NCBI GenBank assembly: GCA_000004695.1
Contig: CM000153.2
Span: forward strand, 3,872,001 to 3,936,000
Origin: Dictyostelium discoideum
Lineage: Eukaryota
Direction: 5' to 3'
DNA: 64,000 bases
The notes beneath the pieces are model-generated. The model was not told the DNA's origin. It worked only from the letters and a program-made list of their open reading frames with translations, and did no database searches. Position 1 is the first letter of the stretch. Every line of letters starts with the position of its first letter. Below, one piece after another: positions 7,686 through 52,210 of this stretch. Position numbers and translations under genes: made by a program.

Positions 7686-8068
7686 TTATAATATAAATAA
7701 AAAAACTAAAATTAAAAAAAATGGAAATGTAAAATTAGAACTAATTGTATTGAAAGCATTATTTGGTATAGGTTTAATTAGGAAATTTGGATCGTTTGGG
7801 TAAAAATAATGTGACCCTGTTTCACCATTTTTTCTTGTCGAATATGAAATTGCATTATTTGACATTTTTGTTTGTAATTTTATTGAGAGGTTTGTTGAAT
7901 TACAATAATAAAAATAAGTAAAGTCCTCATCACAATCAATACTTCCACCATACAAACAAACACCCTTTTTAAATACTTGTAATCCATCTAATCTATATCT
8001 CCAAATTCTTTCATCAGAAAGTTTTGTTTTACTATAACTTTATTATATAATTTTAATAATGGGGGGGG

Positions 8069-8116
<48 letters not shown>

Positions 8117-8541
8117 CATTATAAATTAGCAATTACCTACGTTTCAGTTATTTGACAAAAATCCTTTTCTTTATAATTTATTATTTTATAAACAACTTTA
8201 AAGGATGTATTTAATACTTGAACGCATTCATTTAGATTTATATAATATCTACAATCTTCTCCACAAAAACAAGACATAGAAAAATAACAATCCCTTGTGC
8301 TATTTTCAAATCCACCTGAACAATCAAGTTGGAAATATGGCATGGAAAAACAATATTCTGTCCCTTTTAAAATTGCTTGGTATTGTATAGGTCCACCCTC
8401 ACAATTTGGGTTATTAAATGATTCAACTTGATAATATTTATCTTTTGATGTACCATAAAACGAATTTCCCATACTACCATTTATTAATATAAATAAAATT
8501 GATATTATAAAATAACTTGGAAAATAAAATTGATTTTTCAT
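7686..8541 (-). CDS. Secreted cysteine-rich protein with signal peptide and C-terminal hydrophobic tail (possible GPI anchor); exons 8141..8541 and 7686..8031, 109-bp intron, ~248 aa
   Basis: ATG at 8541 with signal peptide (MKNQFYFPSYFIISILFILINGS) and 16 Cys in exon 1. Donor GTAGGT at 8140-8135 (AAC|GTAGGT, phase 2) and acceptor TTATAG at 8033-8032 restore the frame (..QITE|TKTKLSDERIW..). Exon 2 ends in FTFPFFLILVFLFIL-stop. Alternative reading: exon 1 terminates at the in-frame TAG at 8139-8137 and the downstream ORF is separate (no ATG). Confidence 0.5.
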
Positions 8542-8885
8542 TTTTTTTTTTTTTTTTTTTTTTTGGGGATAAATAATAAATAATATTTTAATGAAATAAA
8601 ATTATCAATATTAAAAATAAAAAGTGTAAAATTATTTTTGTTAATTTTTTTTTTTTTCTAAATAATAAAAAGAAAAAAAAAATAATAAAAAATTAATAAT
8701 CAAAAATAAAAAAAAAAACCACACCCTTCAACCCTCATTTTTTTGTGATCTATTTTTAATTTGTTTTCAATATTTTCAAAATAAAAAAAATAAATAAAAA
8801 AAACAGTGACAGAGGTCAATATTTTTAAAATAAAAAAAAAAATAATAATTATAACGGAAATGATAATTATCTATCTGTGTAACCT

Positions 8886-8933
<48 letters not shown>

Positions 8934-9073
8934 AAATAAATAAAAATAAATAAAAAAAAATATAAATAAATAAAAGAAATAAAAAATTAAATAAAAAAAA
9001 ATTTACAAAAATATAATTTTATATATCTCCTTATTACTTTATTTTAATTTAATTATTATTTATTTATTATTAA

Positions 9074-10987
9074 CTAAGTTGAAGTATTTGTTGTAGTTGT
9101 TGTATTTGAATTATTTGATTGTTGTGGTGGTACAAAAGCATTAACTAAAGTTGATAAAGAGTTATTTGATGAATCTAATTCATTTTTTGAATGATTTAAA
9201 AAATCTTTTCTTCTTGTACCTCTTAAAGATGGATAAGCAGTTTTAAAAGTTTGTTTTCTCATTTGACGATGAAATGAAGGATAGAGTAAAGTTTTACGTT
9301 CACCACTATTTTTCAAATCCTCTAAATGAATTTTAATTGAATTTCTAAATAATGATCTACTCTTATTTAAACAAAACAATGGTGCATCTTTTTGAATTGA
9401 TGATGATAATGGTGAATTTGATGGTGATGTTGAAGGTGATGTTGATGTTGATGATGTTGAACTAACTACATTATTTGTGGTGGTGGTAGTAGTCGTTGAT
9501 GAAGTGGATAATGATGATGATGATTTTTCAGAAATTTGTTGACTATTTTTTAAAGATGTAATTAAAGTATGTTGAATATGAATTTGAGTTTTTCTTTTTA
9601 AGATATCTTCATTTCTACATTTTTCACAAATTGATTCACCATTCTTTTCAAAATATTTACCACCTTCTAAAACCTCGTTACAACAGAAACATCTGAAACA
9701 AGTTGGACATAAATTTTTACCATTAACTTTTAAAAACATGCCATCTATATATTGGTTGCATTGGTCACATTTGGTACCTACCAATTCTTCGAAATGATCT
9801 TTACAATAGATTAGACCTTGATGGTCACCCAATTGACCCTCTATTTGAATAGCACATTTAGAACAAACCAAACAAGCTACATGCCATTTAAAATTCAATG
9901 CATCCATCATAACTTCGTCAACTATTGGTAATTTACAACCATAACATGTGATTTCAGAATGAGCTTCATTCATTATATGATTAACATCGCAATCAAAGCA
10001 AACCGGTTTATCGTTTCTAATATAATATAATGATGGATCCATTGGGGTTTCATCAAAACATTCTGAACATTGAAAACATTCTCTATGATAAATACCACAA
10101 TCCAATATAATTGGTCTACTTTGATTAATTGCCAATTCACATTTACTACAAATCATTGATTCAACTGTCATTTGTCGCCTTTTTCCATTATCTTCTAAAT
10201 CATTAAATATCATTGATGGATCAATTGATGATACTGGTGATGGTTCTGTTGATTTATCAATTTCAATAACTAATTTTATAATCTCTTTATCTAATTTATC
10301 ACAAATTTCTGGTATTTTATTCTCCAAAATATTTTCAATATTATCATTATTATTATTATCATCATCATCACCATTTTGTCGATTTTTATTATCAATACAA
10401 CTTGAACATTTAAATCTTCTAATATTATTGATATTTTCAACTATAAAATCTTTACCACCTAAATAACTTGTGCAATAATAACATAAAAAGCATGATCTGT
10501 GATAAATATGGTCACCCAATTCTTCAAAATCTGATGTTTTAATAACTAAATTACAACCTGAACAACTCTTAAAAAATTCAGTACCACAATCTGTACATAA
10601 CATTTCATTATTTTCAAATACACAATCTAAATTATATTTTTTTAAAGAAAAAAAAAAATCAACTTTAGTATATTATATCACAATTTTTCATTTATTCGTT
10701 TTGAATATTTATTTAAAACTTACCACTTTCACCACCCAATGGTTTTGAACATTTTACACAAACTACACATTTCCAATGATAATTTTCAGAATTTCTATTA
10801 ATTGATGGATCAGTTGCAGTTATAGGAAGATTACATTTTGGACAAATAAATGCTAATTTAGATCCTCTATTTTTAACAATTTTACTATTATTACCCCAAG
10901 CTGAAAAACTGTTATTATTAATAATGTTATTATTATTATTATTTTTATTTGAATTCTCATCGTTAATTTTATTATTATTACTATTAA

Positions 10988-11030
<43 letters not shown>

Positions 11031-12386
11031 TGAAATGATTTCAAAAGTATTATTTGTACTTGATGATAAATTTGAAGTTGATGATGTTGATGATGTTAAT
11101 GATTTATTATTACTATTACTATTATGATATAATTTTGCTAAACCAGTTGCATAAGAAGTATTGAATACTCTTTTTTCTTCAACAGATTCTTCTGAAACTG
11201 AACTAGAGTCATCATCTCTGTCATCCTCTAAAAATATTAATTCAATTGAAAAATTACTATGGAAATGTTTTAAATCTTTATGTGCTTTATCAATTTCTTG
11301 TCTTCTTATATGAATTTTAGTTCCTTCAATAAATGCTGTATGAAAACAATAACTAAACATATGACCCTTTGAATTTCTATTAAAAAATTGAATTTGAACA
11401 TCATTAACTAATAAAATATTACCACAATCTAATTCAACTTGTTGATGAATTGTTCCTTTTTTTAATTTCTTATTTTTTTTAAAAAAAAAAATAATAATAA
11501 TAATTATTAATTAATAATTAATTATAATCAATATAGTTAATAAAATAAAATAAATAATACATACAACTGGTTTTGAATAAAATACAGATTTACCTTGTTG
11601 AACAATTGATAAATATGGTTCACAACCACCACCTATATTAAAATTTGGTAATGAATTCATTTTTATCATTGATAAAACTTTTGTAATTGATGGTGGTTTT
11701 GGTATTGGTTTACCATATTGTAGTAATGCTTCGAAATATCTAACATATCTGATTTGACTTGGAATTGTTACACCCTTACTATTGTGTGTTCTTTTATTTG
11801 CAAATAATCTCATTGACTCTGATCCAGTTTGACATTGTTTATTATATAATAGCCAACATGCTAACATTGTACCAGTTCTACCTTTACCTGCTTTACAATG
11901 AACTGCAACTACATTTTCTGGATTTTGATCCAACCACATCTCCTAATTTAAAAAAATAAAAAAAAAAATAAAAAAAATAAAAAAAATAAAAAATTGTTAG
12001 TATGATTGATTGATTTATTAAAAAAAAGTATAAATAAATAAATATAAATATAAATATTCACATACCATATCATTACAAAATTCTGAAATTATATTTAAAG
12101 TTGGTGGACAATGATCATCAAATGGATATTCACTAACTCTATCTTCAAATCTGCAATGTTCATATTTTCTTTCAGAACAAAGATTATAAACTTTATAATG
12201 GTCTGCATGTAATGTATTGAAAAATCTTTGGACATCCCTCATTCTATTCCTATATAATCCTTCCAATGATTCACTAGGAAAACCCATTGCTATAACTCTG
12301 TCTGTGATATATGATAAATCAAGATCAAAATTATACATTTCAAAACGTCTTTTCTTTTTTGATACCATTTTTCTTACTAAGTCCAT
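9074..12386 (-). CDS. PTEN-family lipid/protein phosphatase (phosphatase + C2 domains) fused in frame to five C-terminal LIM domains; 4 exons 12066..12386, 11565..11942, 10724..11468, 9074..10626; 998 aa
   Basis: Exon 1 MDLVRKMVSKKKRRFEMYNFDLDLSYITDRVIAMGFPSE..YKVYNLCSERKYEH matches the PTEN N-terminus. Exon 2 carries the exact PTEN catalytic loop HCKAGKGRTG and KGVTIPSQIRYVRYF. Exon 3 begins with a PTEN-C2-like segment (ELDCGNILLVNDVQIQFF..MFSYCFHTAFIEG, compare human PLPVCGDIKVEFF..MFHFWVNTFFIPG) and runs without a stop into a LIM zinc finger (CPKC-x18-H-x2-C-x2-C-x2-C). Donors are GTATGT (12065-12060), GTATGT (11564-11559) and GTAAGT (10723-10718). Acceptors are TTAG (11944-11943), TAAG (11470-11469) and TTTAG (10628-10627). 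The exon 3/4 junction completes LIM1 exactly (..C-x18-CTDC) and four more perfect LIM domains follow. Introns are 123, 96 and 97 bp. Confidence 0.75.
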
Positions 12387-28845: not shown

Positions 28846-29445
28846 TATTTTTTAAATATTGAATAAAGAAAAAAACTTGTATAAAAGGTAAGGGAGGTCG
28901 GGTGTAAAAATTTCAACATTAAAGTGGTAATTTTATGAGGTACTGATGGGTTTGTCACCTCTTTTTTTTATTTTTTTTTTCACTTTTTTTTTTATTTTCT
29001 GTGTGGCTCCCCTTAACAAAAGTCAAAACAAAAATTTAAAATAAATTTTATAACTTTTTTTTATTTTTTTTTTTTAAACTAATTTTTTATTTGTGTAAAA
29101 AATTAAAAAAATGTTTTTAATTTAAATTACACTCAAATTAACTTTGTAAATTTAATTATTATATTTAAATAAAAGCAGTTTTTACAATTTAATAAATTCA
29201 TTGAAATCATTTAATTTCATTCAAACACCAAGTTTTTTATTTCAAAGAATTTTTTTTTTTGAATCACAAAAAATTAATAACCCCATCAATTTTTTTTTTT
29301 TTCTCAATTTTTTTTTTTTTTTTTTTTTCTTATCAAAATAAAAAAAAATAAATATAAATAAAAAAAATCTTTTTTGGATATATTTATATTATTTTAATTT
29401 TTCTATTTATTTGTTTTTGTGCATGAATTTATATTAAATAACAAA

Positions 29446-31941
29446 ATGTTACAAAGTTTAAAAAATGTTTTTTTTTCAGAAACCACAACTACAACAACAA
29501 CATCAACTACAACACCAGTATCAAATTCAGCTATTAAAAGATACATTGGCAATATAAATGATTATAAGAATGCAAACTATTTTAATTATTATAGAATTTT
29601 GGAGAATAAATATGACTACCTTAGGGACACCTTTGGTTTAAAAACTTTTTCAAACAATGAAACATTCAAATTAATTGATTTTACAATTGATTCAGAAATG
29701 AATAATACTTGTATAACATCAATTTGGAATCAAAAGTATTCAAATAATTCAAGTATACCAGTTGAGGGTATTTATAAAATTCCATTAGCACCATATAGTG
29801 TCATTTCAGGATTCACAGTAGAATATCAAGATAAAGTTTTCATCGGTAAAATTAAATCAAAAGAAAAAGCACAAAATCAATACTCTGATTCAATCGCAAG
29901 TGGTGGCCAAGCATTCCTCGCAGAGAAAACTCAAGATGGTCAATTCTCATTTAGAATCGGTAATTTACCACCAAATGAAAATGTTACAATTCATTTAACA
30001 ATTATTTCAGGAGTTTGTCCTCATTTATCAAGTTTGCAAAATTGTTTCCATCGTTTCTTATTCCCAAATTATTCATTTAATTTCCAATTCAATTTAAATA
30101 TTAAATTAACATTACCAATTAAAACTATTGAATTATTATATTATCCAAATAGAGAAATTAAATTCAAAGAAAACTCTAATAATAAAGAAGCAACTCTTAC
30201 ATTCTCTTCAAAAAACGGTATTGATAGTGATATTGTCTGTATAGTTGAACCAGAGAATGATATTGAAAGACCACAATCAATTATTGAACATTCAAAATTA
30301 AATAATACATATGCAGTCAGTGTCAACTTTACACCATCATTCAGTCATTTAACATCGGATGATGTAAATCAAAAAAGTGAATTTATATTCCTCATCGATT
30401 GTTCAGGAAGTATGAGTGGTGAACCAATTAAAAAAGCAAAAAGAGCTTTAGAAATTATTATTAGAAGTTTAAATGAAAATTGTAAGTTTAATATTTATTG
30501 TTTCGGTAGTAGATTTACAAAAGCATTCGACAATTCAAAAATGTACAATGATGAAACATTAGCTCAAATTTCAGGATATGTTGAAAAAATTGATGCAGAC
30601 TTAGGAGGTACAGAATTATTACCACCAATCCGTGATATCCTTTCCACTGAATCAGATTTCGAATATCCAAGACAATTATTCATTCTTACAGATGGCGAAG
30701 TCAGTGAAAGAGATAGTTTAATAAACTATGTAGCAACAGAATCAAATAACACTAGAATCTTTACATATGGTATTGGAAATAGTGTAGATACAGAATTAGT
30801 AATTGGTTTATCAAAAGCATGTAAAGGTTATTATGAAATGATTAAAGATAACTCAAATTTCGAAGAACAAGTAATGAAATTAGTTTCAATTGCATTCGAA
30901 CCAACACTTTCAAATATTAAAGTAGATTGGGGTACAGAATTACAAATTGAACAAGGTCCAACCAAAATTCGTCCACTTTATTCAGGTGAGACTTTAATTG
31001 TTTATGCATTATTAAAAGATAATAAAATTCCTCAATCAACAGTACAAGTTTCATTAATTGGTGATGGACCAACTGGTTCAAAATTAGAATTCCCAATTAC
31101 ATTAGATTTCTCAAAAACAATTGATTATGAAAATAATTCAGTTCATACATTAGCAGCATTTAACATTATAAAAGATTTAGAAGAAGTTGAAAGAAAAGGA
31201 AATCATTCAAACAATAGAGACAGAATAGAAGAGTTAGGAAAAAGCTATGGATTAATATCAAAGTATACTTCATATATTGTCACTGCAGCTTCTGAACAAG
31301 TAACTGAAGAAACAATGAAAACTTTAAATATTATCCAAACACCAACAACAACAACAACAACATCACACTCAAATCGTAGAAGAGAAGAAGCAGATCATAC
31401 TATGAATCAAACTTTGCTTAAAAATTGTGCTGTTGTTGATGATTTATTTGAAAGTTGTGAAATGTTATCAGAAACCTCAATTAAATTTGAATGTAATAGA
31501 GTGTACAAAAAAATTCCTTCCTCTTTATCAAAGATTTTTTCATTCTTTTCATCACTATCCACATCTTCCTCTGTGAGATCAGAAGTTGTATCCAATTTTG
31601 ATAATGATATAGAATCAGAGGAAAAGAAAAATAATAGTATTAATAATAATAGTGATAGTTTATTAAAATTAATTAAACTTCAAAAAGCCAATGGATCATG
31701 GAGTTCACCATTTAGTGAATTCAAAATTGATTTATCAAAGAAACCATCAAACATTGATAGCGATGATATTTGGATCACTTTAATAGTAATCAACAAGATT
31801 CTTAATGATTATCCAACTCAACAATCTCAATATGACCTTGTAATTCAAAAGGCTTCAAAATGGGTAAAACAACAATTAACAAGATTAAACATTCCAAATC
31901 AATATGGCTCATTATTAGCTACTTCAAAATTACATATTTAA
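29446..31941 (+). CDS. VIT + vWA domain protein, tandem copy 3 (831 aa)
   Basis: ATG at 29446. About 95% identical to copy 1 through the VIT and vWA domains. C-terminal third diverges (unique Cys-containing segment NRRREEADHTMNQTLLKNCAVVDDLFESCEMLSE.., no poly-Asn). Shares the terminal KLIKLQKANGSWSSPF..QYGSLLATSKLHI block. Confidence 0.8.
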   Translation: MLQSLKNVFFSETTTTTTTSTTTPVSNSAIKRYIGNINDYKNANYFNYYRILENKYDYLRDTFGLKTFSNNETFKLIDFTIDSEMNNTCITSIWNQKYSNNSSIPVEGIYKIPLAPYSVISGFTVEYQDKVFIGKIKSKEKAQNQYSDSIASGGQAFLAEKTQDGQFSFRIGNLPPNENVTIHLTIISGVCPHLSSLQNCFHRFLFPNYSFNFQFNLNIKLTLPIKTIELLYYPNREIKFKENSNNKEATLTFSSKNGIDSDIVCIVEPENDIERPQSIIEHSKLNNTYAVSVNFTPSFSHLTSDDVNQKSEFIFLIDCSGSMSGEPIKKAKRALEIIIRSLNENCKFNIYCFGSRFTKAFDNSKMYNDETLAQISGYVEKIDADLGGTELLPPIRDILSTESDFEYPRQLFILTDGEVSERDSLINYVATESNNTRIFTYGIGNSVDTELVIGLSKACKGYYEMIKDNSNFEEQVMKLVSIAFEPTLSNIKVDWGTELQIEQGPTKIRPLYSGETLIVYALLKDNKIPQSTVQVSLIGDGPTGSKLEFPITLDFSKTIDYENNSVHTLAAFNIIKDLEEVERKGNHSNNRDRIEELGKSYGLISKYTSYIVTAASEQVTEETMKTLNIIQTPTTTTTTSHSNRRREEADHTMNQTLLKNCAVVDDLFESCEMLSETSIKFECNRVYKKIPSSLSKIFSFFSSLSTSSSVRSEVVSNFDNDIESEEKKNNSINNNSDSLLKLIKLQKANGSWSSPFSEFKIDLSKKPSNIDSDDIWITLIVINKILNDYPTQQSQYDLVIQKASKWVKQQLTRLNIPNQYGSLLATSKLHI

Positions 31942-36513: not shown

Positions 36514-37947
36514 TTATAGATTATTAATTCTATTATTAGAAATTATTGATAATAATTTTCTTTCCCATTTATCATATCTCTCTTCAGAATTTCTAATATA
36601 ACTTTTAAATGAACTGCATGCAGGTTTTAAAATTTTTAAATTATAGGTATGAGAATTTGAATTTGGTAATTTGAATAAATCTTCATCATTATCACTACCA
36701 CCTAATTGTTGTTGAGATTTATAATATTGTGTTATACAATCTTTGCAAAAGTTTTTAGTTTTATTTATTTCATATTCAAAAAATAAAGGATCTTTTAAAA
36801 CGTTATTACAAATACCACAAAGTATACCTATTGATAGAAATTCACCAATTTTGAAATTATTAAAATTTTTAGAAATTTGGTCAACCAATATTGTATTGTT
36901 TCCAAATGATTGAAGCATATTTTCAACATCCAATTTAATTAATTTCAAAGTTTCCAAAGAGTTGATAAGGTCAAGTTCCTTCTCAATAAAGAATTTATTA
37001 CCTAATGCTTCAACAACGATTCCACTAACAAATGAAAATGAACCACCAGCGATCATGAAAATTGAAGCCAATGCAGAGAATAATGAAATTCCTGCAGTAA
37101 ATGGAGCAAAAACTGCACCAATTATAACAGTTGCACAACCAATTATTAAAAAAAAGATACCACCAAAATTTAAAACTATTTTCTTTAAATTGTTTTTATC
37201 AATTAGTTTTTTAATACTTGGAGCTTGAATACTTTTACTTTGTAATATACATTTGGTTAGATTTTGAATATGTTCATTTGAGAATTGATTTTGGTTTTTT
37301 AATAATAATGGTGTATTACAAGTGGCACTCTCTGGTAATATTGATTTCTGAGAGAGAACACCTCTTTTACATTCATTGATACTTTTATCAATATCTTCAA
37401 TTAATTCATTAGCTAATAGCATCAATTGACAGTGAGTTTTCTCCAAATCATAAACATCAGATTTAATCTCTAAATTTAAATTTTCATGGTGAGTGTCAAG
37501 TGAAATTTCAGTTGCATCTTTATTAAACTTTGAAACCAATTTAAAAAATTTAATAAATAATTCAACAAGAGTTTGTATTTTTTTTATATAAGGTTTTAAA
37601 ACTGATTTCTTTGATAGTGATGTGAATAATAACACTCTACCAAACTCTGTTGGAACAAATACCCCGAATTTTCTAGCAGCTTCTCTCTTTTTTTTTTTTT
37701 TTAAAAAAAATCAATTAGTAAATAAAAAAAAAAATAAAAAAAAAAAATAAAAAAAAAAAAACAATTGGATTGTTTAGATTTTATTTATTTTTTTTCCATC
37801 ACTAATTATTAAAAAGAAATTACATACAATGATATCATTATCAGATTCAGCAAGTTCTTTAATATTTTTCATTAATTCACCAACAACATTTGGTTCTGGT
37901 AATTGATCATATTTAACTTTTTCACCTTTTAAAAAATCCAAAACCAT
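36514..37947 (-). CDS. Hypothetical 430-aa protein with a central glycine-zipper hydrophobic hairpin and a C-terminal Cys cluster; exons 37828..37947 and 36514..37686, 141-bp intron
   Basis: ATG at 37947 (MVLDFLKGEKVKYDQLPEPNVVGELMKNIKELAESDNDII). Donor ATT|GTATGT at 37827. Acceptor AAAAAG at 37688-37687, in frame to REAARKFGVFVPTEFGRVLLFTSL.. (the track ORF starts at an internal GTG). Hairpin FGGIFFLIIGCATVIIGAVFAPFTAGISLFSALASIFMIAGGSFSFVSGIVVEAL. CGICNN..CKDC near the C-terminus. Confidence 0.6.
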
Positions 37948-39475: not shown

Positions 39476-42400
39476 ATGGAATCAATAATTTGTAATAGTT
39501 GTTTTGAAGTTTATGATGAAGCATATTATTTATCACCATGTGGAGATACAATATGTAAGAAATGTTTGTCACCAAATATAAGTACATTAGTTAGTAGTAT
39601 TGGTGTTGTAAATAGTTGTGGTGGTGGGGGTGCTGCTGGTAGTAGTAATGGTAATGGTACTGGTACTGGTAATAGTAATAGTAATAGTAATGGTACTGGT
39701 AATAGTACAACAACAACAACAATTGATTATTGTAATCAAATAACTTGTAAAATTTGTGATAAAAAAGTTAATAGTTATTATATAAACAAAGAGATTCAAA
39801 TTCTATTGGATAGTTTAAAAGTTAAATCATGTCCAAAACATCATAGAAAAGAAACTCAATTCTATTGTTTAGATTGTAAATCAACTTGTTGTTCAAATTG
39901 TAAATCTGATAAAGTTCATAAAAGTCATCAAATTTCAGACTATAATTTAATTTTATTTAATTCAATTTATTATAATATTGAAAAACAAATAATGAATAAA
40001 AATAAAAATCCAATAAATAATAATCCAAATAATAAATTAACACAATTATCAAATTCAACTAATAATAATAATAATAATAATTTTAATTCAATTAAAAATA
40101 ATGTTAGTATAAAATTTAAAGATCAACGTGTAAGATTACATCATACATTTTTTAATAATTGTAAAGAGATTATTCAAAATGTTAATGTAATAAAGAATAA
40201 AATTAAAGATTTAATACCAAAGAATGGTGTATATTGTAAAAGAACATTTTATTTGAAATCAATTGAATTAAATAAAAATTCAGCAATATCTTATTTCAAT
40301 TTAGCAATTACTTTAATTGATTCAACTGAACAATCTGTAACACTATTTGATAATTCAGTATTAAAAGAAGATGATCTTTATTTACGTTCACTTTCAATTG
40401 ATCCAAATAATCCATTTTGTTATTTTAATCTTGCAATTGGATTAGGTTCATCATCACCAACCACTACAACTACTACAACTACTACTACAACTACTACAAA
40501 TAATACAAATACAAATTCACCACAACAACAAATTATAATTGAAAATGGTGCAAGTCCACCAATCATATCACCATCAACATCACAATCTAGTTCATTACTA
40601 ATAAATACAGAGAATGAATCACAAACATCAACAATACTATTACCAAATGGTAAAAAAGTTAATAAAGTTGGATTATTAATTAAAGCAATAGAGGTTGACT
40701 CAAATTATTCATATGCGTATTATAATTTAGGAAAATGTTTAAAAACAAGTTCAGTTGTATTTTCAAACTCAACAATAATGAAAAAGAAAGATTTATTTAT
40801 AAAATATATTAGTTTTCATCCAAATCATGCATTTGCATATAACAATTTAGCAATTAATATTAAACCAGAAGAAACTGTTACTCTATTAAATAGTGGTAAA
40901 ATAATGACACAATCTGAACTTTATAAGAAAGCAATTGATTTAAATCCATTTTACTCAAATCCATATATAAATTTAGCATCGATAATATGCGGCAATGAAG
41001 AACCTGTTAAATTATTAAATGGTCAATTAATATCAAAAAAGGAATTACTCATTAAAGCAATTGATATAGACCCATTGAATGCAAATGCTTATAATAATTT
41101 AGCAACAAATATTGAAAAAGATGAAATTGTTACATTGGCAAGTGGTAAACAAGTGAATAAGAAATACCTATACTTGAAATCAATCGATTGTAACCCGAAT
41201 AATGCCAATGCATATAATAATTTAGCATTATTTTTAAAAACTAATGAAGATAAAATTCAATTACTTAATGGTATTTGGTTAGATAAGAAATCATTATACA
41301 TTAGATCACTATCGATTGAACCATTAAATAATTTAATGGCATATAATAATTTAGCAAATTGCTTAAAACCAAATGAAAAAATTCAATTATTAAATGGTAA
41401 TTGGATAGATAAGAAAACCCTCTACATTAAATCAATTTCAATCGATCCAACAATTCCAAGGATTTTTATAAATTTAGCTAAAAATATGAATTTCATTGAA
41501 AAGATTCAATTAGAAGATGGTACAAAATTATTAAAAAAAGATATACTCATTAAAATCGTTGATTTTGAACCAAAACAATGGATTCATTATTACAATTTAG
41601 CAAATTCTTTAAAACTTAATGAATCTGTAAAATTACAATCAATGCCTTTAATTTCAAAAATTTCAAAAAAAGAATTATATTTGAAAGCATTAGATTTAAA
41701 TCCAAATTCAGATGCAAGATTATATAATGTTTTAGCTGGTATAATTAAACCAAATGAAACTGTTAAATTATTAAATGATAAAGTAATTTACACTAAAAAA
41801 GATCTATTCTTAAAATCAATTCAATTAGAAAAAGATAATCCAAATACATATTTAAATTTATCTTTAATTTTATTACATAATGAATCTGTAACAATGTTAA
41901 ATGAATTGAATGAAAATTCTTTAAAATTAATTAAAACACCAACAAGTACTACTACAAATACTACAAGTGAATTAAAATTATCAAAAAAAGAATTACTTAT
42001 TAAAACAATTCAATTAGATCCATCAAATTCAAAAGCATATATTAATTTAGCAGATGAAATTGATTCAACTGAAATTATAACAATATTAAGAGATGTCGAT
42101 CAAAAATTAGTACCATTTACAAAGATTGATTTATATATATTTTCAATACATGTATTTGCAAAGAATGCAATTGCATATTATAATTTAGCATTAAATTTAA
42201 CAGCAACTTATAAACAATCAGTAACACTATTAAATGGTAAAACAATGACAACTAGACAACTTTTAATCAAAGCAATTTCAATAAATAATAAATTTGCCGA
42301 TGCTTATCATTTATTAGCAAAAATATTAGATCATGATGAACAAATTCAAATTTTAATTAGAAATTCCACTAGTAAACCACCAATTGGTACATTAGAATCA

Positions 42401-43180
42401 TTTGGTAAAAAAGATTTATTAATTAAAGCTATAAAGTTAAACCCAGATCCAAACTATTTCTATACATTGGGTAATTATTTCAAGAATGAGTCAATCATGG
42501 TCAATTGTAATCTATCGGAGATGTATGTGAAATATAATGGCATTAAAATGAGACCAAGGGATATTTTCATACAATCGTTCACGAGAATACCTCCATTCTT
42601 GTTGTTGCAAACCATTGATAACCCATTCCACTATTTAAATGATGTTATGGCAATTGAAATCGATTATTCAAAAAGACAACCTACAATTGACAAATTTTTA
42701 AATCTCATCGATATTAATCCAAATAATGCCAATCATTATTTCACATTAGGTTATTATTTAGCCACAAAAGAAACTATTCATTTATTAAATGGTTTTCAAA
42801 TGTGTAAAATATCACTATTCGTTAAAGCAATTGAATTGGATCCAAATCATATTCAATCTTATTTTTCACTTTATCTTTATTTACATTTAACTCGTGATCC
42901 TGATATAACTTTTGTAACTTTATCAAATGGTGAAATCATGTATAAAGAAGATATAGTTAGAAGAATTGAATCAATGGATAAAAGATTAACTGATTTAATG
43001 TTTACTGTTTCAACTGCAACTACTTCTACCACAACTAATTCAAACAACAACAACAACAATAACAACAACAACACCAATACCACTACCACTACCACTACAA
43101 CCAATGGTATAACAACAACTTCAACAAATAATGGTTCACCATCATGTTCTTCAATTTCTTCAACTTTTCCAACTTCATAA
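39476..43180 (+). CDS. RING-type zinc finger + B-box (TRIM-like N-terminus) followed by about 20 tandem ~40-aa TPR-like repeats; 1234 aa, single exon
   Basis: ATG at 39476. CNSCFEVYDEAYYLSPCGDTICKKC ... CNQITCKICDKK RING-like Cys ligands split by a Gly/Ser/Asn/Thr insert. B-box CPKHHRKETQFYCLDCKSTCCSNCKSDKVHKSH. Then repeated units of the form KKELLIKAIDIDPLNANAYNNLATNIEKDEIVTLASGKQVN (consensus ..LYIKSIxIDPxNAxAYNNLAxxLKxNExIxLLNGxxxxKK). Confidence 0.8.
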   Translation: MESIICNSCFEVYDEAYYLSPCGDTICKKCLSPNISTLVSSIGVVNSCGGGGAAGSSNGNGTGTGNSNSNSNGTGNSTTTTTIDYCNQITCKICDKKVNSYYINKEIQILLDSLKVKSCPKHHRKETQFYCLDCKSTCCSNCKSDKVHKSHQISDYNLILFNSIYYNIEKQIMNKNKNPINNNPNNKLTQLSNSTNNNNNNNFNSIKNNVSIKFKDQRVRLHHTFFNNCKEIIQNVNVIKNKIKDLIPKNGVYCKRTFYLKSIELNKNSAISYFNLAITLIDSTEQSVTLFDNSVLKEDDLYLRSLSIDPNNPFCYFNLAIGLGSSSPTTTTTTTTTTTTTNNTNTNSPQQQIIIENGASPPIISPSTSQSSSLLINTENESQTSTILLPNGKKVNKVGLLIKAIEVDSNYSYAYYNLGKCLKTSSVVFSNSTIMKKKDLFIKYISFHPNHAFAYNNLAINIKPEETVTLLNSGKIMTQSELYKKAIDLNPFYSNPYINLASIICGNEEPVKLLNGQLISKKELLIKAIDIDPLNANAYNNLATNIEKDEIVTLASGKQVNKKYLYLKSIDCNPNNANAYNNLALFLKTNEDKIQLLNGIWLDKKSLYIRSLSIEPLNNLMAYNNLANCLKPNEKIQLLNGNWIDKKTLYIKSISIDPTIPRIFINLAKNMNFIEKIQLEDGTKLLKKDILIKIVDFEPKQWIHYYNLANSLKLNESVKLQSMPLISKISKKELYLKALDLNPNSDARLYNVLAGIIKPNETVKLLNDKVIYTKKDLFLKSIQLEKDNPNTYLNLSLILLHNESVTMLNELNENSLKLIKTPTSTTTNTTSELKLSKKELLIKTIQLDPSNSKAYINLADEIDSTEIITILRDVDQKLVPFTKIDLYIFSIHVFAKNAIAYYNLALNLTATYKQSVTLLNGKTMTTRQLLIKAISINNKFADAYHLLAKILDHDEQIQILIRNSTSKPPIGTLESFGKKDLLIKAIKLNPDPNYFYTLGNYFKNESIMVNCNLSEMYVKYNGIKMRPRDIFIQSFTRIPPFLLLQTIDNPFHYLNDVMAIEIDYSKRQPTIDKFLNLIDINPNNANHYFTLGYYLATKETIHLLNGFQMCKISLFVKAIELDPNHIQSYFSLYLYLHLTRDPDITFVTLSNGEIMYKEDIVRRIESMDKRLTDLMFTVSTATTSTTTNSNNNNNNNNNNTNTTTTTTTTNGITTTSTNNGSPSCSSISSTFPTS

Positions 43181-43271: not shown

Positions 43272-44373
43272 TTATAAAAATTTTAAATCAGCAACAATTG
43301 GAAAATGATCACTTGCAATTGTTGAATTTTTAGTAACTTTTGATGGATGATTATTAAATACTACAAATGTTTTTGCTTTAAATTGTTGATTTATAAAGAT
43401 ATAATCAATAGTTTCAGAATAGGCACAATCGAAACCAGTGAATGTTGAATCTGGTCCAATTTTACAATTTGCTATTGTTTTTGTATTGAATAATGTTTGA
43501 AATGCAATATCATCACGAATTGGAATCTCTAATAATTGAATATACTTTATTGCGAAATTGATATCAATAGTTGATGAAATTAAATTTTCAATTGGTTTTT
43601 GGTAATCGTTGGAATTGAAATCACCCACTAGTATCAATGGTATTTGAGGTTTTAATGTTGCTATGAAACTTTTAATTAACATTGTACCTTCACTTCTTGC
43701 CAATTCAGATTGATGATCTAAATGAGTATTTAAAAAGTAAAAACTTTTATTGGTCTTTTTTTGTTTAAATAATCCCCATGTCACTATACGTGTACATGCT
43801 GTATTCCAACTTTTACTTCCTACTTTATATGGTGTTTCACTAACCCAAAATTGATGTGAATGAACTAATTCTATCTTTTTTGTATTATAAAAAATTGGTG
43901 AAAATTCTCCTTTTTCATTTCCGTCACTTTATTTTTAAAAAAAAAAAAATAAAAAAAAAATAAATAAAAAAAACTAATTAATATATGTATTTTTTTTTTT
44001 TTTTTTTTTCAATAATATTATTAATACAATTTTTGTTACATACTCTCTACCAACACCAATAAAATCATAACTCATTTCATAATTGTTATTTAAATTTTCT
44101 TTGATATCTTTAATTTGGTGAAATAAACATTCTTGAAATCCAATAATATCAGCTGATATTAATTTTATTTTTATTTATTTTTATTTAATTTAATTAAATT
44201 AAAATTAAAATTAGTAATTGAAAAATTAAAATAAAATGATAATAGTAATAATTACCTTTTAAAAAAGAAATATTTGAAAAAACTAACATTTTTCTATGAA
44301 CCCAAGAGTTTTGTTTATCACTTGGGTTATCAAATCTAATATTGTATGAAACTGCTCTTAATTCATTTTTCAT
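43272..44373 (-). CDS. Endonuclease/exonuclease/phosphatase (EEP) family protein; 3 exons 44256..44373, 44044..44152, 43272..43926; 293 aa
   Basis: ATG at 44373 (MKNELRAVSYNIRFDNP..). Donors G|GTAATT at 44255 and GA|GTATGT at 44043. Acceptors TATCAG at 44154-44153 and AATAAAG at 43928-43927. Join gives ..FIGVGRE|DDGNEKGEFSPIFYN.. and the C-terminal SDHFPI motif typical of EEP enzymes. Confidence 0.75.
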
Positions 44374-44754: not shown

Positions 44755-45692
44755 ATGGCAAGCTCTTCACCAAATATAGCATCACCTCAATTAGGTATAA
44801 GGAATAGATTTTTGAATACAAGTAGTGGAAATATAAATTTACAAACCAATAATAATAATAATAACAATAACAATAATAATAATGATATAAATGATAATAT
44901 AGCATCACCTCCAATTTCAAATAATAATAATAGTAATACAGCATGTTCGCCGCAATTAGTGTTACCTACAACACCTACACCAACATCTACCAATATTTTA
45001 AGCCCATTAACTAATAGCAACATACCGATATCANNNNNNNNNNNNNNNNNNNNNNNNNNNNNNNNNNNNNNNNNNNNNNNNNNNNNNNNNNNNNNNNNNN
45101 NNNNNNNNNNNNNNNNNNNNNNNNNNNNNNNNNTCTACAACAACAACAGCAACAACAGCAACAACAACAACAACAACAACCTCAAAATACTATACATCAA
45201 CATCATAGTCAACTCTTACAGTATCAACACCAACATCAACAACAACATAATCAACAGTATCCACAACCATTACAACACAACCATCAACAACAACAACATC
45301 AAAATCAACAACAGCAAAATCAACAACAGCAAAATCAAAATCAACAACAGCAAAATCAACAACAACAGCAAAATCAACAACAAAATCAACAACAAATTAA
45401 TAATGCAGCACCAGTTAGAAAGAAATATAAACCATTACAAAGAAATAATACAGCAAATCATGATTTAACAGCATTTTATGGATGGATTATTATTATATGT
45501 ACATTAACTTTTTTCATTATTTCAACATATTGTTTAGTATTTTCAAAGTTATTACCTGATACTGGTAACAGAATTTTAGATTTCATAAAGTATGATTGGT
45601 ATTATTGCTTATTGGTACCTGTTATTATACCTGTCACTATTATAACTGTTTATTTCAATTGGTTAAGTTTAAAGTTCTTTAGACATAATTAA
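44755..45692 (+). CDS. PIG-Y/Eri1-type GPI-GlcNAc transferase subunit (C-terminal two-TM domain) with a long Asn/Gln-rich N-terminal extension; CDS interrupted by an assembly gap
   Basis: The C-terminus YYCLLVPVIIPVTIITVYFNWLSLKFFRHN-stop (stop 45690-45692) aligns with human PIGY ..CFYSLLLPITIPVYVFFHLWTWMGIKLFRHN-stop. The post-gap reading frame is open and Gln-rich back to the gap with no in-frame ATG, so the start lies before or inside the gap. An ATG-initiated Asn-rich ORF (44755) runs into the gap from the 5' side. Confidence 0.55.
45034..45133. other. Assembly gap (100 N)
   Basis: Run of n characters; the length is a placeholder, so reading-frame continuity across it is unknown. Confidence 1.
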
Positions 45693-50083: not shown

Positions 50084-52210
50084 TTACAAGTTCCAGATCG
50101 CTTTTTTATAATCATTCCAATCACCATCAAAGTTTTTAACTTCTTTTGGTTCACCTTCTTCACCATCGAAATACCAAATTTCATCACAAACCAAAGAAAT
50201 TAATCTTTCATCGTGAGATACTAAAAGTATACCACCTTCGAAAACATTGAGAGCATGACAGAGAGCATCAACGGTATCAATATCCAAATGATTTGAAGGT
50301 TCATCGAGTAAGAGAATGTGAGGTTTGGTGTAAGAGATTTGAGCCAATACGACACGAGACTTTTGACCACCAGATAAAGTATTTACAGTACGAAGGGCGA
50401 TATCACCAGACAAACCAAATTTACCCAAATGAGAACGAGCAGTTTGAGCGGTGGTACCAGGATATTTGGCGAGGAAATTATCGAGTGGAGATTTGGAGAG
50501 ATCCAATTGATCGACGAAATGTTGACTGAAACGAGAGAATCTTAGCTTACCATTACGGATGACCAAACCATTGGTTTCTTCCAACTCGCCACATAACAAA
50601 CGAAGGAGAGTTGTTTTACCGGCACCATTTGCACCGACGAGAGCTACACGACTACCCATATCGATACCAAGATTGAGATTTTTAAAGAGGAGTTTATCTG
50701 GAGTGTAACCAAATGAAACGTCTTGGAATTGAAGAATGGGTGGTGCCAATGGTTCAGGTTCCAAGAATTGAAGGGTAACGGTTGGATCATCCAATACTTC
50801 ACCAATATCCTCCATACGTTCCAATTGTTTGATACGAGATTGTGCCATTTTTGCACGTTTAGCATTGTAACGGAAACGATCGATAAATGCTTGAATATGT
50901 TTTTTTTGAGATTGTTGAGCTTCGAATGAACGTTGTTGAGCCTTCAAACGATCAGAACGAGTACGTTCAAACACTGAATAGTTACCCTTATAATAGTCGA
51001 TCTTTTTATTGTTCAAATGCATGATATCGGTACAAACTGCATTGAGGAATTCACGTTGATGTGATACGATGACCAAGGTACGATTCCAATTGACCAAGTA
51101 GGACTCTAACCAAAGACAAGCAAACAAATCCAAATGATTGGTTGGTTCATCCAATAAGAGAACATCTGGTTGAATAAAGAGTGCACGAGCCAATGAAATT
51201 CTCATTCTCCAACCTCCACTGAAACTTTTGGTTGGTTGTTGTTGCATTTCCTCTGTGAAACCTAAACCCGAGAGAATTGCTGCAGCTCTTGATTCGGCGG
51301 TATGAGCATCGATATGATTGAGTTTCTCATAGATGCTATTGAGTTTCTCTGAGAGATTATTCTTTTCACTCTCTGGGAGAGCGTTTAAACGTTTCTCTTC
51401 CTTTAAGAGACGATCCCTCTCAACGTCTGCTTCGAGTACACACTCGATAACTGTGGTTTCATTACCATTGACCTCTTGTTCCACATGAAGAATTGAGAGA
51501 TTATTATCGATACCAATCTCTCTTGAGGCAATATGACGAAGAAGTGTTGTCTTACCAGTACCATTTCTACCAATTAAACCATACTTTCTACCATAGTTTA
51601 GATTGAGATCAGAGTTGATGATCAAATCATTCTTACCATAGGTGACATTGAATGCATCCACATGAATATCACGTGATTGATTGGTACCACGAATAGTTGA
51701 TGCCATCATGGTTTGTTGTTCTTTCAATGAGTTTAATGCTGCCAATGCTGCATTTTGACGAAGTTTCTTTCTCTCCTCTTTGGCAAGACGTGCTTCCTTT
51801 CTTGCATTGTAACGTTTTTCATTGGCTTCCAATTGATCCTTGTTCACAATGGAAATGCCTTCCTCTGCTTTCATCCATGATACTGCTGCTCCAACACGAT
51901 CATCCAATCTTTGAAGTGCTACTGGTTGTGATAATTGTGTAATTGTTTGTTTCTGTTTAATTGTAATGAGTTTTTCATTCACCAATGCCTCCACTATACC
52001 ATTGATTGCGCTATTGACTCCACTTTCATCATCTGCAAAACATGTATCCAATAATAATGGTGATAATATCTCTGTCAATTCATCCATATCACTATTGACT
52101 CCTTCATCTTCAAATACTCCTGATATATAATCAATGATTGTTTCATCTATATCTTTGGTTTTATCTCCTAATGTTTTTTCAATTACACTTTTAATTTCCT
52201 TTGATACCAT
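50084..52210 (-). CDS. ABCF-subfamily ATP-binding cassette protein (GCN20/ABCF3 orthologue type: N-terminal GCN1-interaction-like domain + two ABC ATPase domains, no TM domain); 708 aa, single exon
   Basis: ATG at 52210. Walker A GRNGTGKTTLLR and GANGAGKTTLL. ABC signatures LSGGWRMRISLARALF and LSGGQKSRV. Walker B LLLDEP twice. Collinear with yeast GCN20 (DIHVDAFNVTYG.. compare DIHIDTFDLYVG; SILHVEQEV compare SILHVEQEL). Confidence 0.9.
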   Translation of the reverse strand: MVSKEIKSVIEKTLGDKTKDIDETIIDYISGVFEDEGVNSDMDELTEILSPLLLDTCFADDESGVNSAINGIVEALVNEKLITIKQKQTITQLSQPVALQRLDDRVGAAVSWMKAEEGISIVNKDQLEANEKRYNARKEARLAKEERKKLRQNAALAALNSLKEQQTMMASTIRGTNQSRDIHVDAFNVTYGKNDLIINSDLNLNYGRKYGLIGRNGTGKTTLLRHIASREIGIDNNLSILHVEQEVNGNETTVIECVLEADVERDRLLKEEKRLNALPESEKNNLSEKLNSIYEKLNHIDAHTAESRAAAILSGLGFTEEMQQQPTKSFSGGWRMRISLARALFIQPDVLLLDEPTNHLDLFACLWLESYLVNWNRTLVIVSHQREFLNAVCTDIMHLNNKKIDYYKGNYSVFERTRSDRLKAQQRSFEAQQSQKKHIQAFIDRFRYNAKRAKMAQSRIKQLERMEDIGEVLDDPTVTLQFLEPEPLAPPILQFQDVSFGYTPDKLLFKNLNLGIDMGSRVALVGANGAGKTTLLRLLCGELEETNGLVIRNGKLRFSRFSQHFVDQLDLSKSPLDNFLAKYPGTTAQTARSHLGKFGLSGDIALRTVNTLSGGQKSRVVLAQISYTKPHILLLDEPSNHLDIDTVDALCHALNVFEGGILLVSHDERLISLVCDEIWYFDGEEGEPKEVKNFDGDWNDYKKAIWNL

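Follow-up and report, generated by a model that had tools for sequence, protein, structure and literature searches.

What is known about proteins built like the one described here? In the TRIM/RBCC family, an N-terminal RING finger is followed within ~25 residues by a type 2 B-box (B-box2), then by a helix and a C-terminal repeat domain for putative substrate binding; TRIM2 and TRIM3 share this layout, and their C-terminal repeats are NHL repeats. Tails made of tetratricopeptide repeats (TPRs) go unmentioned in two surveys of the TRIM family (PMC2533329, PMC3503706). Dictyostelium discoideum has been described as having a single TRIM, the TRIM37-like DdTRIM encoded by DDB_G0273381 (PMC5758549), and one TRIM37-like gene is likewise reported for it in PMC3503706. 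Here we analyze a 64,000-nucleotide stretch of the D. discoideum genome (assembly GCA_000004695.1, contig CM000153.2, forward-strand positions 3,872,001 to 3,936,000; hereafter the window, with positions counted from its first letter), in which an open reading frame (ORF) at 39476..43180 on the plus strand would encode a 1234-residue protein with a RING finger and a B-box in front of ~20 TPR-type units. TPRs are also joined to a U-box in CHIP/STUB1 and to a RING in TTC3, but those proteins carry three or four canonical TPRs at the N-terminus, have no B-box, and are unrelated in sequence to the window protein beyond generic folds.

The frame starts at an ATG with A-rich surroundings and runs uninterrupted through 1234 codons to a stop. 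The encoded protein has 97% identity to a hypothetical protein of D. discoideum (P0001), 90% to a protein of D. citrinum (P0002) and, over 95% of the length, 46% to DICPUDRAFT_96644 of D. purpureum (P0003). The exact 1234-residue sequence was absent from the protein collection searched, and in an alignment of the four sequences the strain-to-strain differences are mostly the lengths of low-complexity tracts. The start MESIIC is common to all three annotated proteins, and the end STFPTS is common to the first two. Since the annotated orthologues begin and end alike, we conclude that the gene is colinear with them and intron-less. The first-pass annotation of this DNA had described it as a single intron-less exon in an intron-rich neighbourhood, and the flanking genes on either side do appear, from their sequence, to be split by introns. 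In Dictyostelium, genes without introns are nothing unusual. By cross-species comparison this is a real, conserved, single-exon Dictyostelium gene, which databases already list as a hypothetical protein or as a 'B box-type domain-containing' one; a chance ORF was ruled out by its length and its conservation between species. The window as a whole has ~20% G+C and contains many poly-Asn and poly-Thr coding tracts. The zinc-ligand pattern and profile matches identify the gene product as a TRIM-like RING/B-box protein, so far known only from the genus Dictyostelium, in D. discoideum, D. citrinum and D. purpureum. The domain order is RING, B-box2, short helical linker and ~900-residue TPR-type superhelix.

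The RING and B-box head

How closely does the head resemble that of a TRIM protein? The RING finger (aa 6-94; 39491..39757) has the ligands C6, C9, C22, D24, C27, C30, C91 and C94 (C3-D-C4), spaced C-x2-C-x12-C-x-D-x2-C-x2-C-x(32-60)-C-x2-C, all of which are invariant in four Dictyostelium sequences from three species; C48, C86, H123 and C138 vary among the same four heads. The second RING loop contains a Gly/Asn/Ser/Thr low-complexity insert (aa 47-82; 39614..39721), which is evident from the alignment and from its DNA, a 6-nt and 30-nt microsatellite. The length of this insert varies with species, and it is shorter or absent in D. citrinum and D. purpureum. When the low-complexity loop was excised computationally and the Pfam models were rerun, the RING was matched from end to end by zf-RING_5 (33.2 bits; threshold 27.9), zf-RING_UBOX (27.5; threshold 25.2) and zf-C3HC4 (22.4; threshold 21), and the D. 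citrinum protein, whose loop is naturally shorter, matched positions 2-41 of the 43 in zf-RING_5 with 25.8 bits. The B-box2 (aa 116-154; 39821..39937) scores 31.1 bits against Pfam zf-B_box (threshold 24.1) and 34.2 bits in D. purpureum, and its ligands C119, H122, C131, C134, C139, C142, H148 and H151 are invariant in the four sequences. The first-pass annotation had proposed a RING with a low-complexity stretch inside it and a B-box2 behind it, and the ligands, the Pfam matches and the solved structures considered below bear it out; the H-x7-C spacing that it gave for the B-box has to be corrected to H-x8-C, the conserved histidine being H122 and not H123.

Profile searches, which that annotation had suggested as a check, place the head among TRIM proteins, nearest to TRIM2, TRIM3, TRIM54, TRIM63 and MID1/2. 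A profile made from the four orthologous heads was searched against all solved chains, and every match at E < 0.2 was a TRIM protein. The TRIM2 RING-B-box structure (8ams_C) was matched over profile positions 4-121 (E 1.8e-4), and the next matches were the B-box2 structures of TRIM63, MID2, TRIM3 and TRIM54. The MID2 B-box alignment extends into the first linker helix; TRIM5 B-box-coiled-coil chains were not significant (E 1.1-1.5). A word-index search with the head only, from which low-complexity parts had been removed, returned no matches and missed even the known orthologues, so it is uninformative. A RING with eight ligands in cross-brace spacing is present, and a B-box2 follows directly after it, as in TRIM proteins. 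The linker (aa 155-250; 39938..40225) comprises two short helices of ~26 residues each (~152-176 and ~221-247) around an Asn-rich insert, in a low-confidence AlphaFold2 (AF2) model (predicted local distance difference test, pLDDT, 33). Their spacing is heptad-like as judged by eye, and the linker may form a short coiled coil.

The window protein departs from the TRIM/RBCC pattern at both ends. Its RING has Asp as ligand 4, Ser at the E2-contact position and an insert giving a loop of 32-60 residues, and its C-terminal domain is a TPR variant. With DdTRIM it shares the organism group and a RING-B-box head (PMC5758549, PMC3503706), but it is not related to TRIM37, of which no chain is among the solved-structure matches listed, and its tail is different. 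The window gene is mentioned in neither PMC5758549 nor PMC3503706, and it would be the second TRIM-like gene of D. discoideum.

A 41-residue repeat with a predicted hairpin

What kind of repeat makes up the remainder of the protein? The array spans aa ~253-1175 (40232..43000), where Pfam reports 14 stretches of TPR_17 (E 2e-55) and eight of TPR_11. A hidden Markov model (HMM) trained on ten units recovers 17 at a domain E < 0.01, and three more degenerate units are recognizable by their spacing, which gives ~20 units, the number given in the first-pass annotation. The regular core consists of ten consecutive units (aa 412-830; 40709..41965) with scores of 43-72 bits. Within the window protein the period is 40-46 residues, mostly 41-43, and low-complexity inserts interrupt two of the units. 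One of these inserts, a Thr/Asn/Ser tract in the third unit (aa 322-385; 40439..40630), separates helix A from the hairpin, so that the HMM matches this unit in two halves (aa 313-321 and 386-410); the tract is absent in D. purpureum. The array is followed by a C-terminal Thr/Asn/Ser low-complexity tail (aa 1176-1234; 43001..43177), seen in the translation, whose length differs across strains and species. All matches of the unit HMM in the 64-kb window lie inside the ORF. Tandem Repeats Finder detected no 123-nt tandem repeat at the DNA level in the array, which argues that the units are ancient; recent amplification and assembly artefact, which we considered as explanations of the array, were ruled out by the same lack of a 123-nt periodicity.

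The unit belongs to a large family. An exhaustive phmmer search with aa 400-830 against 1.84 billion representatives returned 1366 relatives at E ≤ 1e-3, 404 at E ≤ 1e-10 and 88 at E ≤ 1e-30. Among the best 150 relatives the units are 41 residues apart in 221 of 337 spacings, and an initial pattern count found the 34-residue spacing in five of those 150. The 231 units of exactly 41 residues collected from 82 other proteins have the consensus a.AY.NLA.tL..gEsI.LlnG..mTkqqLYLKAI.LDP.., in which positions 4, 7, 8 and 11 of the TPR signature are in place and positions 27 and 32 come seven residues later, at unit positions 34 and 39. Given the family period of 41, the extra segment is seven residues long. 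The first-pass reading of 40-residue units as TPR helix pairs with a 6-residue insertion was therefore correct as to the helix pairs and one residue short as to the insertion.

A structural model agrees with this description. AF2, given aa 452-746 and an alignment of 20 seven-unit segments, returned a TPR-type superhelix with a pLDDT of 93.7 and a predicted template modelling score (pTM) of 0.86; a structure prediction had been another of the suggested checks. In all units of the model, a helix A of 8-10 residues is followed by two short beta-strands joined by a turn and then by a helix B of 11 residues. The stacked antiparallel helix pairs and the signature residues of TPRs are thus both present, but not the 34-residue period, and on the strength of the model the unit is a TPR whose A-B turn is lengthened by seven residues, a segment predicted to fold as a two-stranded beta-hairpin. 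Fold searches with the core model return TPR solenoids, with Foldseek TM-scores of ~0.5 when normalized to the query, and the closest solved sequences are those of the TPR domain of O-GlcNAc transferase (OGT; E 1.5e-12). OGT and SPINDLY, whose TPRs are the nearest solved sequences and folds to the window repeats, resemble them in forming a long unbroken superhelix and in the motif A-Y-x-N-L-[AG], which includes the ladder Asn. However, a unit of OGT is 34 residues long and lacks the hairpin, and the OGT effector is a C-terminal glycosyltransferase, whereas the window protein has an N-terminal zinc-finger head.

Could the repeat simply be a long TPR class that has been described before, namely the '42PR' of kinesin light chain (TPR_10/12), the 40-residue LGN type or a Sel1-like repeat, with nothing structurally new about it? 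A period of 40-43 residues is shared in part with those classes, yet neither TPR_10 nor TPR_12 nor Sel1 is among the Pfam matches listed, only TPR_17 and TPR_11. Moreover, the 42-residue class lengthens both helices by about one turn, and the AF2 model does not show this: its helices have 8-10 and 11 residues, and the additional residues form the two strands. The query-normalized TM-scores of only ~0.5 likewise speak against a known class, and we regard this explanation as highly improbable. The profile searches identify the repeat as a TPR and not another known fold. No curated NCBIfam family was matched, no solved structure of the unit was found, and we came across no relevant paper when searching the literature either for TPRs with a hairpin or a length of 41 residues or for RING-B-box-TPR proteins of Dictyostelium. 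As far as we have found, the 41-residue hairpin-TPR is a coherent TPR variant that apparently has no dedicated model or name.

Some database models react with these repeats without describing them. The prenyltransferase alpha-repeat model PPTA (PF01239) has no match on the window protein, which we therefore do not assign to that family. On some pure-repeat relatives (P0140, P0066 and P0150) PPTA scores over threshold, in each case only on the segment helix B, turn, helix A, and on two symbiont proteins, L009:2737-6705 and L014:2449-4335, it falls just under threshold (26.5 and 28.6, respectively, vs 29.5). We read the PPTA matches on repeat relatives as cross-reaction. Pox_vIL-18BP, Neopullulanase-like_C and HIT-like also give spurious above-threshold Pfam matches on these repeats.

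Binding surface and proposed function

What could such a protein do? By homology of its head, it is probably a ubiquitin ligase. On balance, and with modest confidence, we favour a TRIM-like E3 ligase or adaptor whose ~20-unit TPR-type solenoid binds extended peptides in an OGT-like groove lined with asparagines. We propose that the RING/B-box head would recruit a ubiquitin-charged E2 and might self-associate as TRIM proteins do, and that the solenoid would be the receptor for substrates or partners, holding extended, unstructured peptides within the concave groove. The Asn conserved in Y-x-N-L-A would, by homology, act like the asparagine ladder of OGT, whose asparagines hold unstructured peptides by their backbone inside the TPR lumen (PMC11145291). 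Specificity would come from helix-A residues that are particular to each unit, and the hairpins would serve as structural or peripheral decoration.

Two sets of observations bear on the binding surface. First, the OGT ladder Asn aligns with the N of AYNNLA, and a ladder-type Asn occupies this position in 12 of the 15 core motifs of the window protein and in 65% of the 231 family units. Second, we compared 18 aligned units of the window protein with those of the D. purpureum orthologue. At helix-A positions 2, 5, 9 and 10, identity to the orthologue is 0.60-0.87, as against 0.08-0.18 between units; at the variable hairpin positions, identity to the orthologue is only 0.18-0.31. Because the helix-A residues differ from unit to unit and yet are kept in the orthologue, the comparison suggests that a long binding surface, different in each unit, runs along the face formed by helices A, and that the hairpins would be structural decoration.

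Several points weigh against the proposed peptide-binding ligase. That the Asn and the helix-A residues face the concave side is an expectation from known TPRs and not a reading of model coordinates, and our literature searches found no paper on this gene and no experiment. The AF2 model of the head, made from a four-sequence alignment, is uninformative on both zinc geometry and coiled coil, and the ~55 helical residues of the linker are far fewer than in a canonical TRIM coiled coil. In the native sequence, the Pfam RING models match aa 6-33 only, partially and below threshold. Ligand 4 of the RING is Asp, not His; the last Cys pair, C-K-I-C, does not have the usual Pro; and the first Cys pair is C-N-S-C (C-T-S-C in D. 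purpureum), with Ser at the usual E2-contact position. In most active RINGs an Ile, Val or Leu at that position contacts the E2, for example I26 of BRCA1 and I383 of c-Cbl, and in the profile alignment TRIM2 has C-S-I-C where the window RING has C-N-S-C.

The sub-threshold native matches, the Asp ligand and the Ser in place of the E2-contacting hydrophobic residue lend support to the main rival of our proposal, that the RING is catalytically dead and the protein a pure scaffold: its head would be a degenerate zinc-binding or oligomerization module without E3 activity, and the protein would be an adaptor that assembles partners on the solenoid. The loop of 32-60 residues between the RING ligand pairs can be read in the same way, as can the many members of the repeat family that have no ligase head of any kind. 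We nevertheless consider a non-catalytic scaffold rather unlikely. The RING ligands are invariant across the three species, the RING models do rise over threshold at full length once the insert is excised, and modified RINGs with Asp ligands can be active, as in the case of RBX1.

Distribution of the unit and its sharing with chlamydial symbionts

The unit, which occurs in hundreds of protist proteins, is found in scattered eukaryotes, namely Heterostelium album, Echinamoeba exundans, Flectonema neradi and Symbiodinium kawagutii, and in a marine protist transcriptome; viral contigs yielded no relatives of the repeat. The heads that accompany it are diverse. Two B-boxes precede the repeats in one relative (P0068), a RING in another (P0145, Flectonema) and RINGs in a third (P0056), and elsewhere the heads are MYND, ankyrin, trypsin-like or PARP-like domains or pentapeptide repeats. 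From the domain assignments, the combination of a RING or B-box with hairpin-TPRs is not unique to Dictyostelium, although no RING-B-box orthologue was found outside Dictyostelium among the best 150 relatives. The remark in the first-pass annotation that TRIM-like heads are rarely joined to long TPR solenoids accordingly stands for the literature searched, but not for the databases, where RING or B-box heads recur on this repeat in the three protist proteins just named. A unit fused to so many types of head fits a portable binding domain. A shared origin of the B-box heads beyond the domain itself was considered but gained no support: in a profile comparison with P0068, the window head aligns over the B-box alone, with a probability of 14%.

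Two other architectures among the relatives deserve description. The H. album protein PPL_02511 (P0005) has two trypsin-like peptidase domains and 19 near-identical 41-residue units; their near identity indicates a recent amplification of the unit on a different head. P0009 and P0015, from metagenomic and Logan contigs (L046), combine 9-10 hairpin-TPR units with a catalytic domain that is PARP-like or ADP-ribosyltransferase-like.

Among the prokaryotes scanned, the unit is essentially chlamydial. We scanned one genome per species, for 185,579 bacterial and archaeal species, with a sequence pattern and then checked the loci with the unit HMM; the pattern is narrow, and divergent members may be missed. 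The scan returned 43 loci, of which 25 contain 2-18 true units at a spacing of 40-41 residues. All 25 are from Chlamydiota save for one unnamed bacterium, and the 18 loci from other phyla have zero units by the HMM. At least 13 of the unit-bearing loci, with 3-18 units each, belong to an intracellular Rhabdochlamydiaceae symbiont of D. giganteum, described as 'Reclusachlamydia socialis'; the others are from Parachlamydiaceae, Protochlamydia and chlamydial metagenome-assembled genomes. The symbiont regions concerned are 8001-11237 (encoding P0004) and 11422-11952 of L001, and also L002-L011, L014, L017 and L024; WP_404665010 is one of the symbiont's hairpin-TPR proteins. The P0004 gene adjoins a gene for a CesT-family type III secretion chaperone, and a second TPR_17 protein and a DDE transposase are encoded nearby. 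The TPR proteins of 'Reclusachlamydia socialis' and other environmental chlamydiae share the 41-residue unit with the window protein, at 36-44% identity over long stretches, but they are bacterial and have no RING or B-box, and the N-termini examined are either unrelated to the window head or consist of other domains. For R. socialis, 102 proteins of >1000 aa have been reported, 91 of them annotated as hypothetical, and TPRs occur in 48% of these 91 (10.1101/2024.11.28.625222). The large TPR proteins were classed as eukaryote-like and probably secreted (10.1101/2024.11.28.625222). The 'prenyl transferase domains' also reported for this organism, with its 15 'prenyl transferase' proteins, may in part be cross-hits to the hairpin-TPR.

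In which direction did the unit travel? One scenario is that Dictyostelium acquired the array from chlamydial symbionts, a bacterial 41-residue unit having been fused to a RING-B-box head of the host. Many of the best-scoring relatives are indeed chlamydial, and the D. giganteum symbiont contributes its 13 or more loci to this side of the argument. On the other hand, the eukaryotes that have the unit are phylogenetically scattered, real units among the 185,579 prokaryotic species genomes are confined to Chlamydiota and the one unnamed bacterium, the symbiont's own authors called its TPR proteins eukaryote-like (10.1101/2024.11.28.625222), and the Heterostelium protein outscores every chlamydial one in phmmer. 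We therefore judge an origin from chlamydial symbionts to be very unlikely. A unit that is scattered in eukaryotes and, in bacteria, confined to one obligate intracellular phylum favours transfer from eukaryotes to chlamydiae.

The genes around the RING-B-box gene have no evident functional connection to it. They include a VIT and von Willebrand A domain protein (29419-31941, plus strand), a split gene of the endonuclease/exonuclease/phosphatase (EEP) family (43272-44373, minus strand) and an ABC-F-like double ATPase (50084-52210, minus strand). The upstream neighbour (36514-37947, minus strand) apparently has two exons and a hydrophobic, membrane-like stretch; it also has a C-x2-C...C-x2-C motif, CGICNNVLKDPLFFEYEINKTKNFCKDCI, that recalls half of a RING or U-box, and the neighbour has no Pfam match. 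Downstream of the gene, an assembly gap of 100 N (45034-45133) lies within an Asn-rich ORF (44755-45468).

Finally, what would these observations mean for amoebae and their symbionts? For the evolution of TRIM proteins, D. discoideum would have a second RING-B-box protein where reviews count a single TRIM37-like one, with a tail that the TRIM surveys consulted do not mention. For repeat structure, the 41-residue TPR variant, each unit of which is predicted to contain a beta-hairpin, occurs in hundreds of database proteins and is without a solved structure. For host-symbiont biology, a unit that is chlamydial in the prokaryote scan and strongly expanded in a Dictyostelium symbiont suggests a hypothesis of host mimicry. 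In its fullest form, which we offer as speculation and think improbable as a whole, the hairpin-TPR would be a structurally new, widespread and as yet unnamed class of repeat and a host-side recognition module that chlamydiae have copied; the RING-B-box protein would be a TRIM-style ligase of cell-autonomous defence or quality control; and the dozens of hairpin-TPR proteins in Dictyostelium symbionts, at least one of them encoded beside a gene for a type III secretion chaperone, would be secreted mimics that compete for, or hijack, the same ligands. A practical caution also follows, in that some 'prenyltransferase' annotations in the genomes of chlamydial symbionts may be cross-hits to the hairpin-TPR. 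The value of the finding lies mostly in the repeat class and in its sharing by amoebae and chlamydial symbionts.

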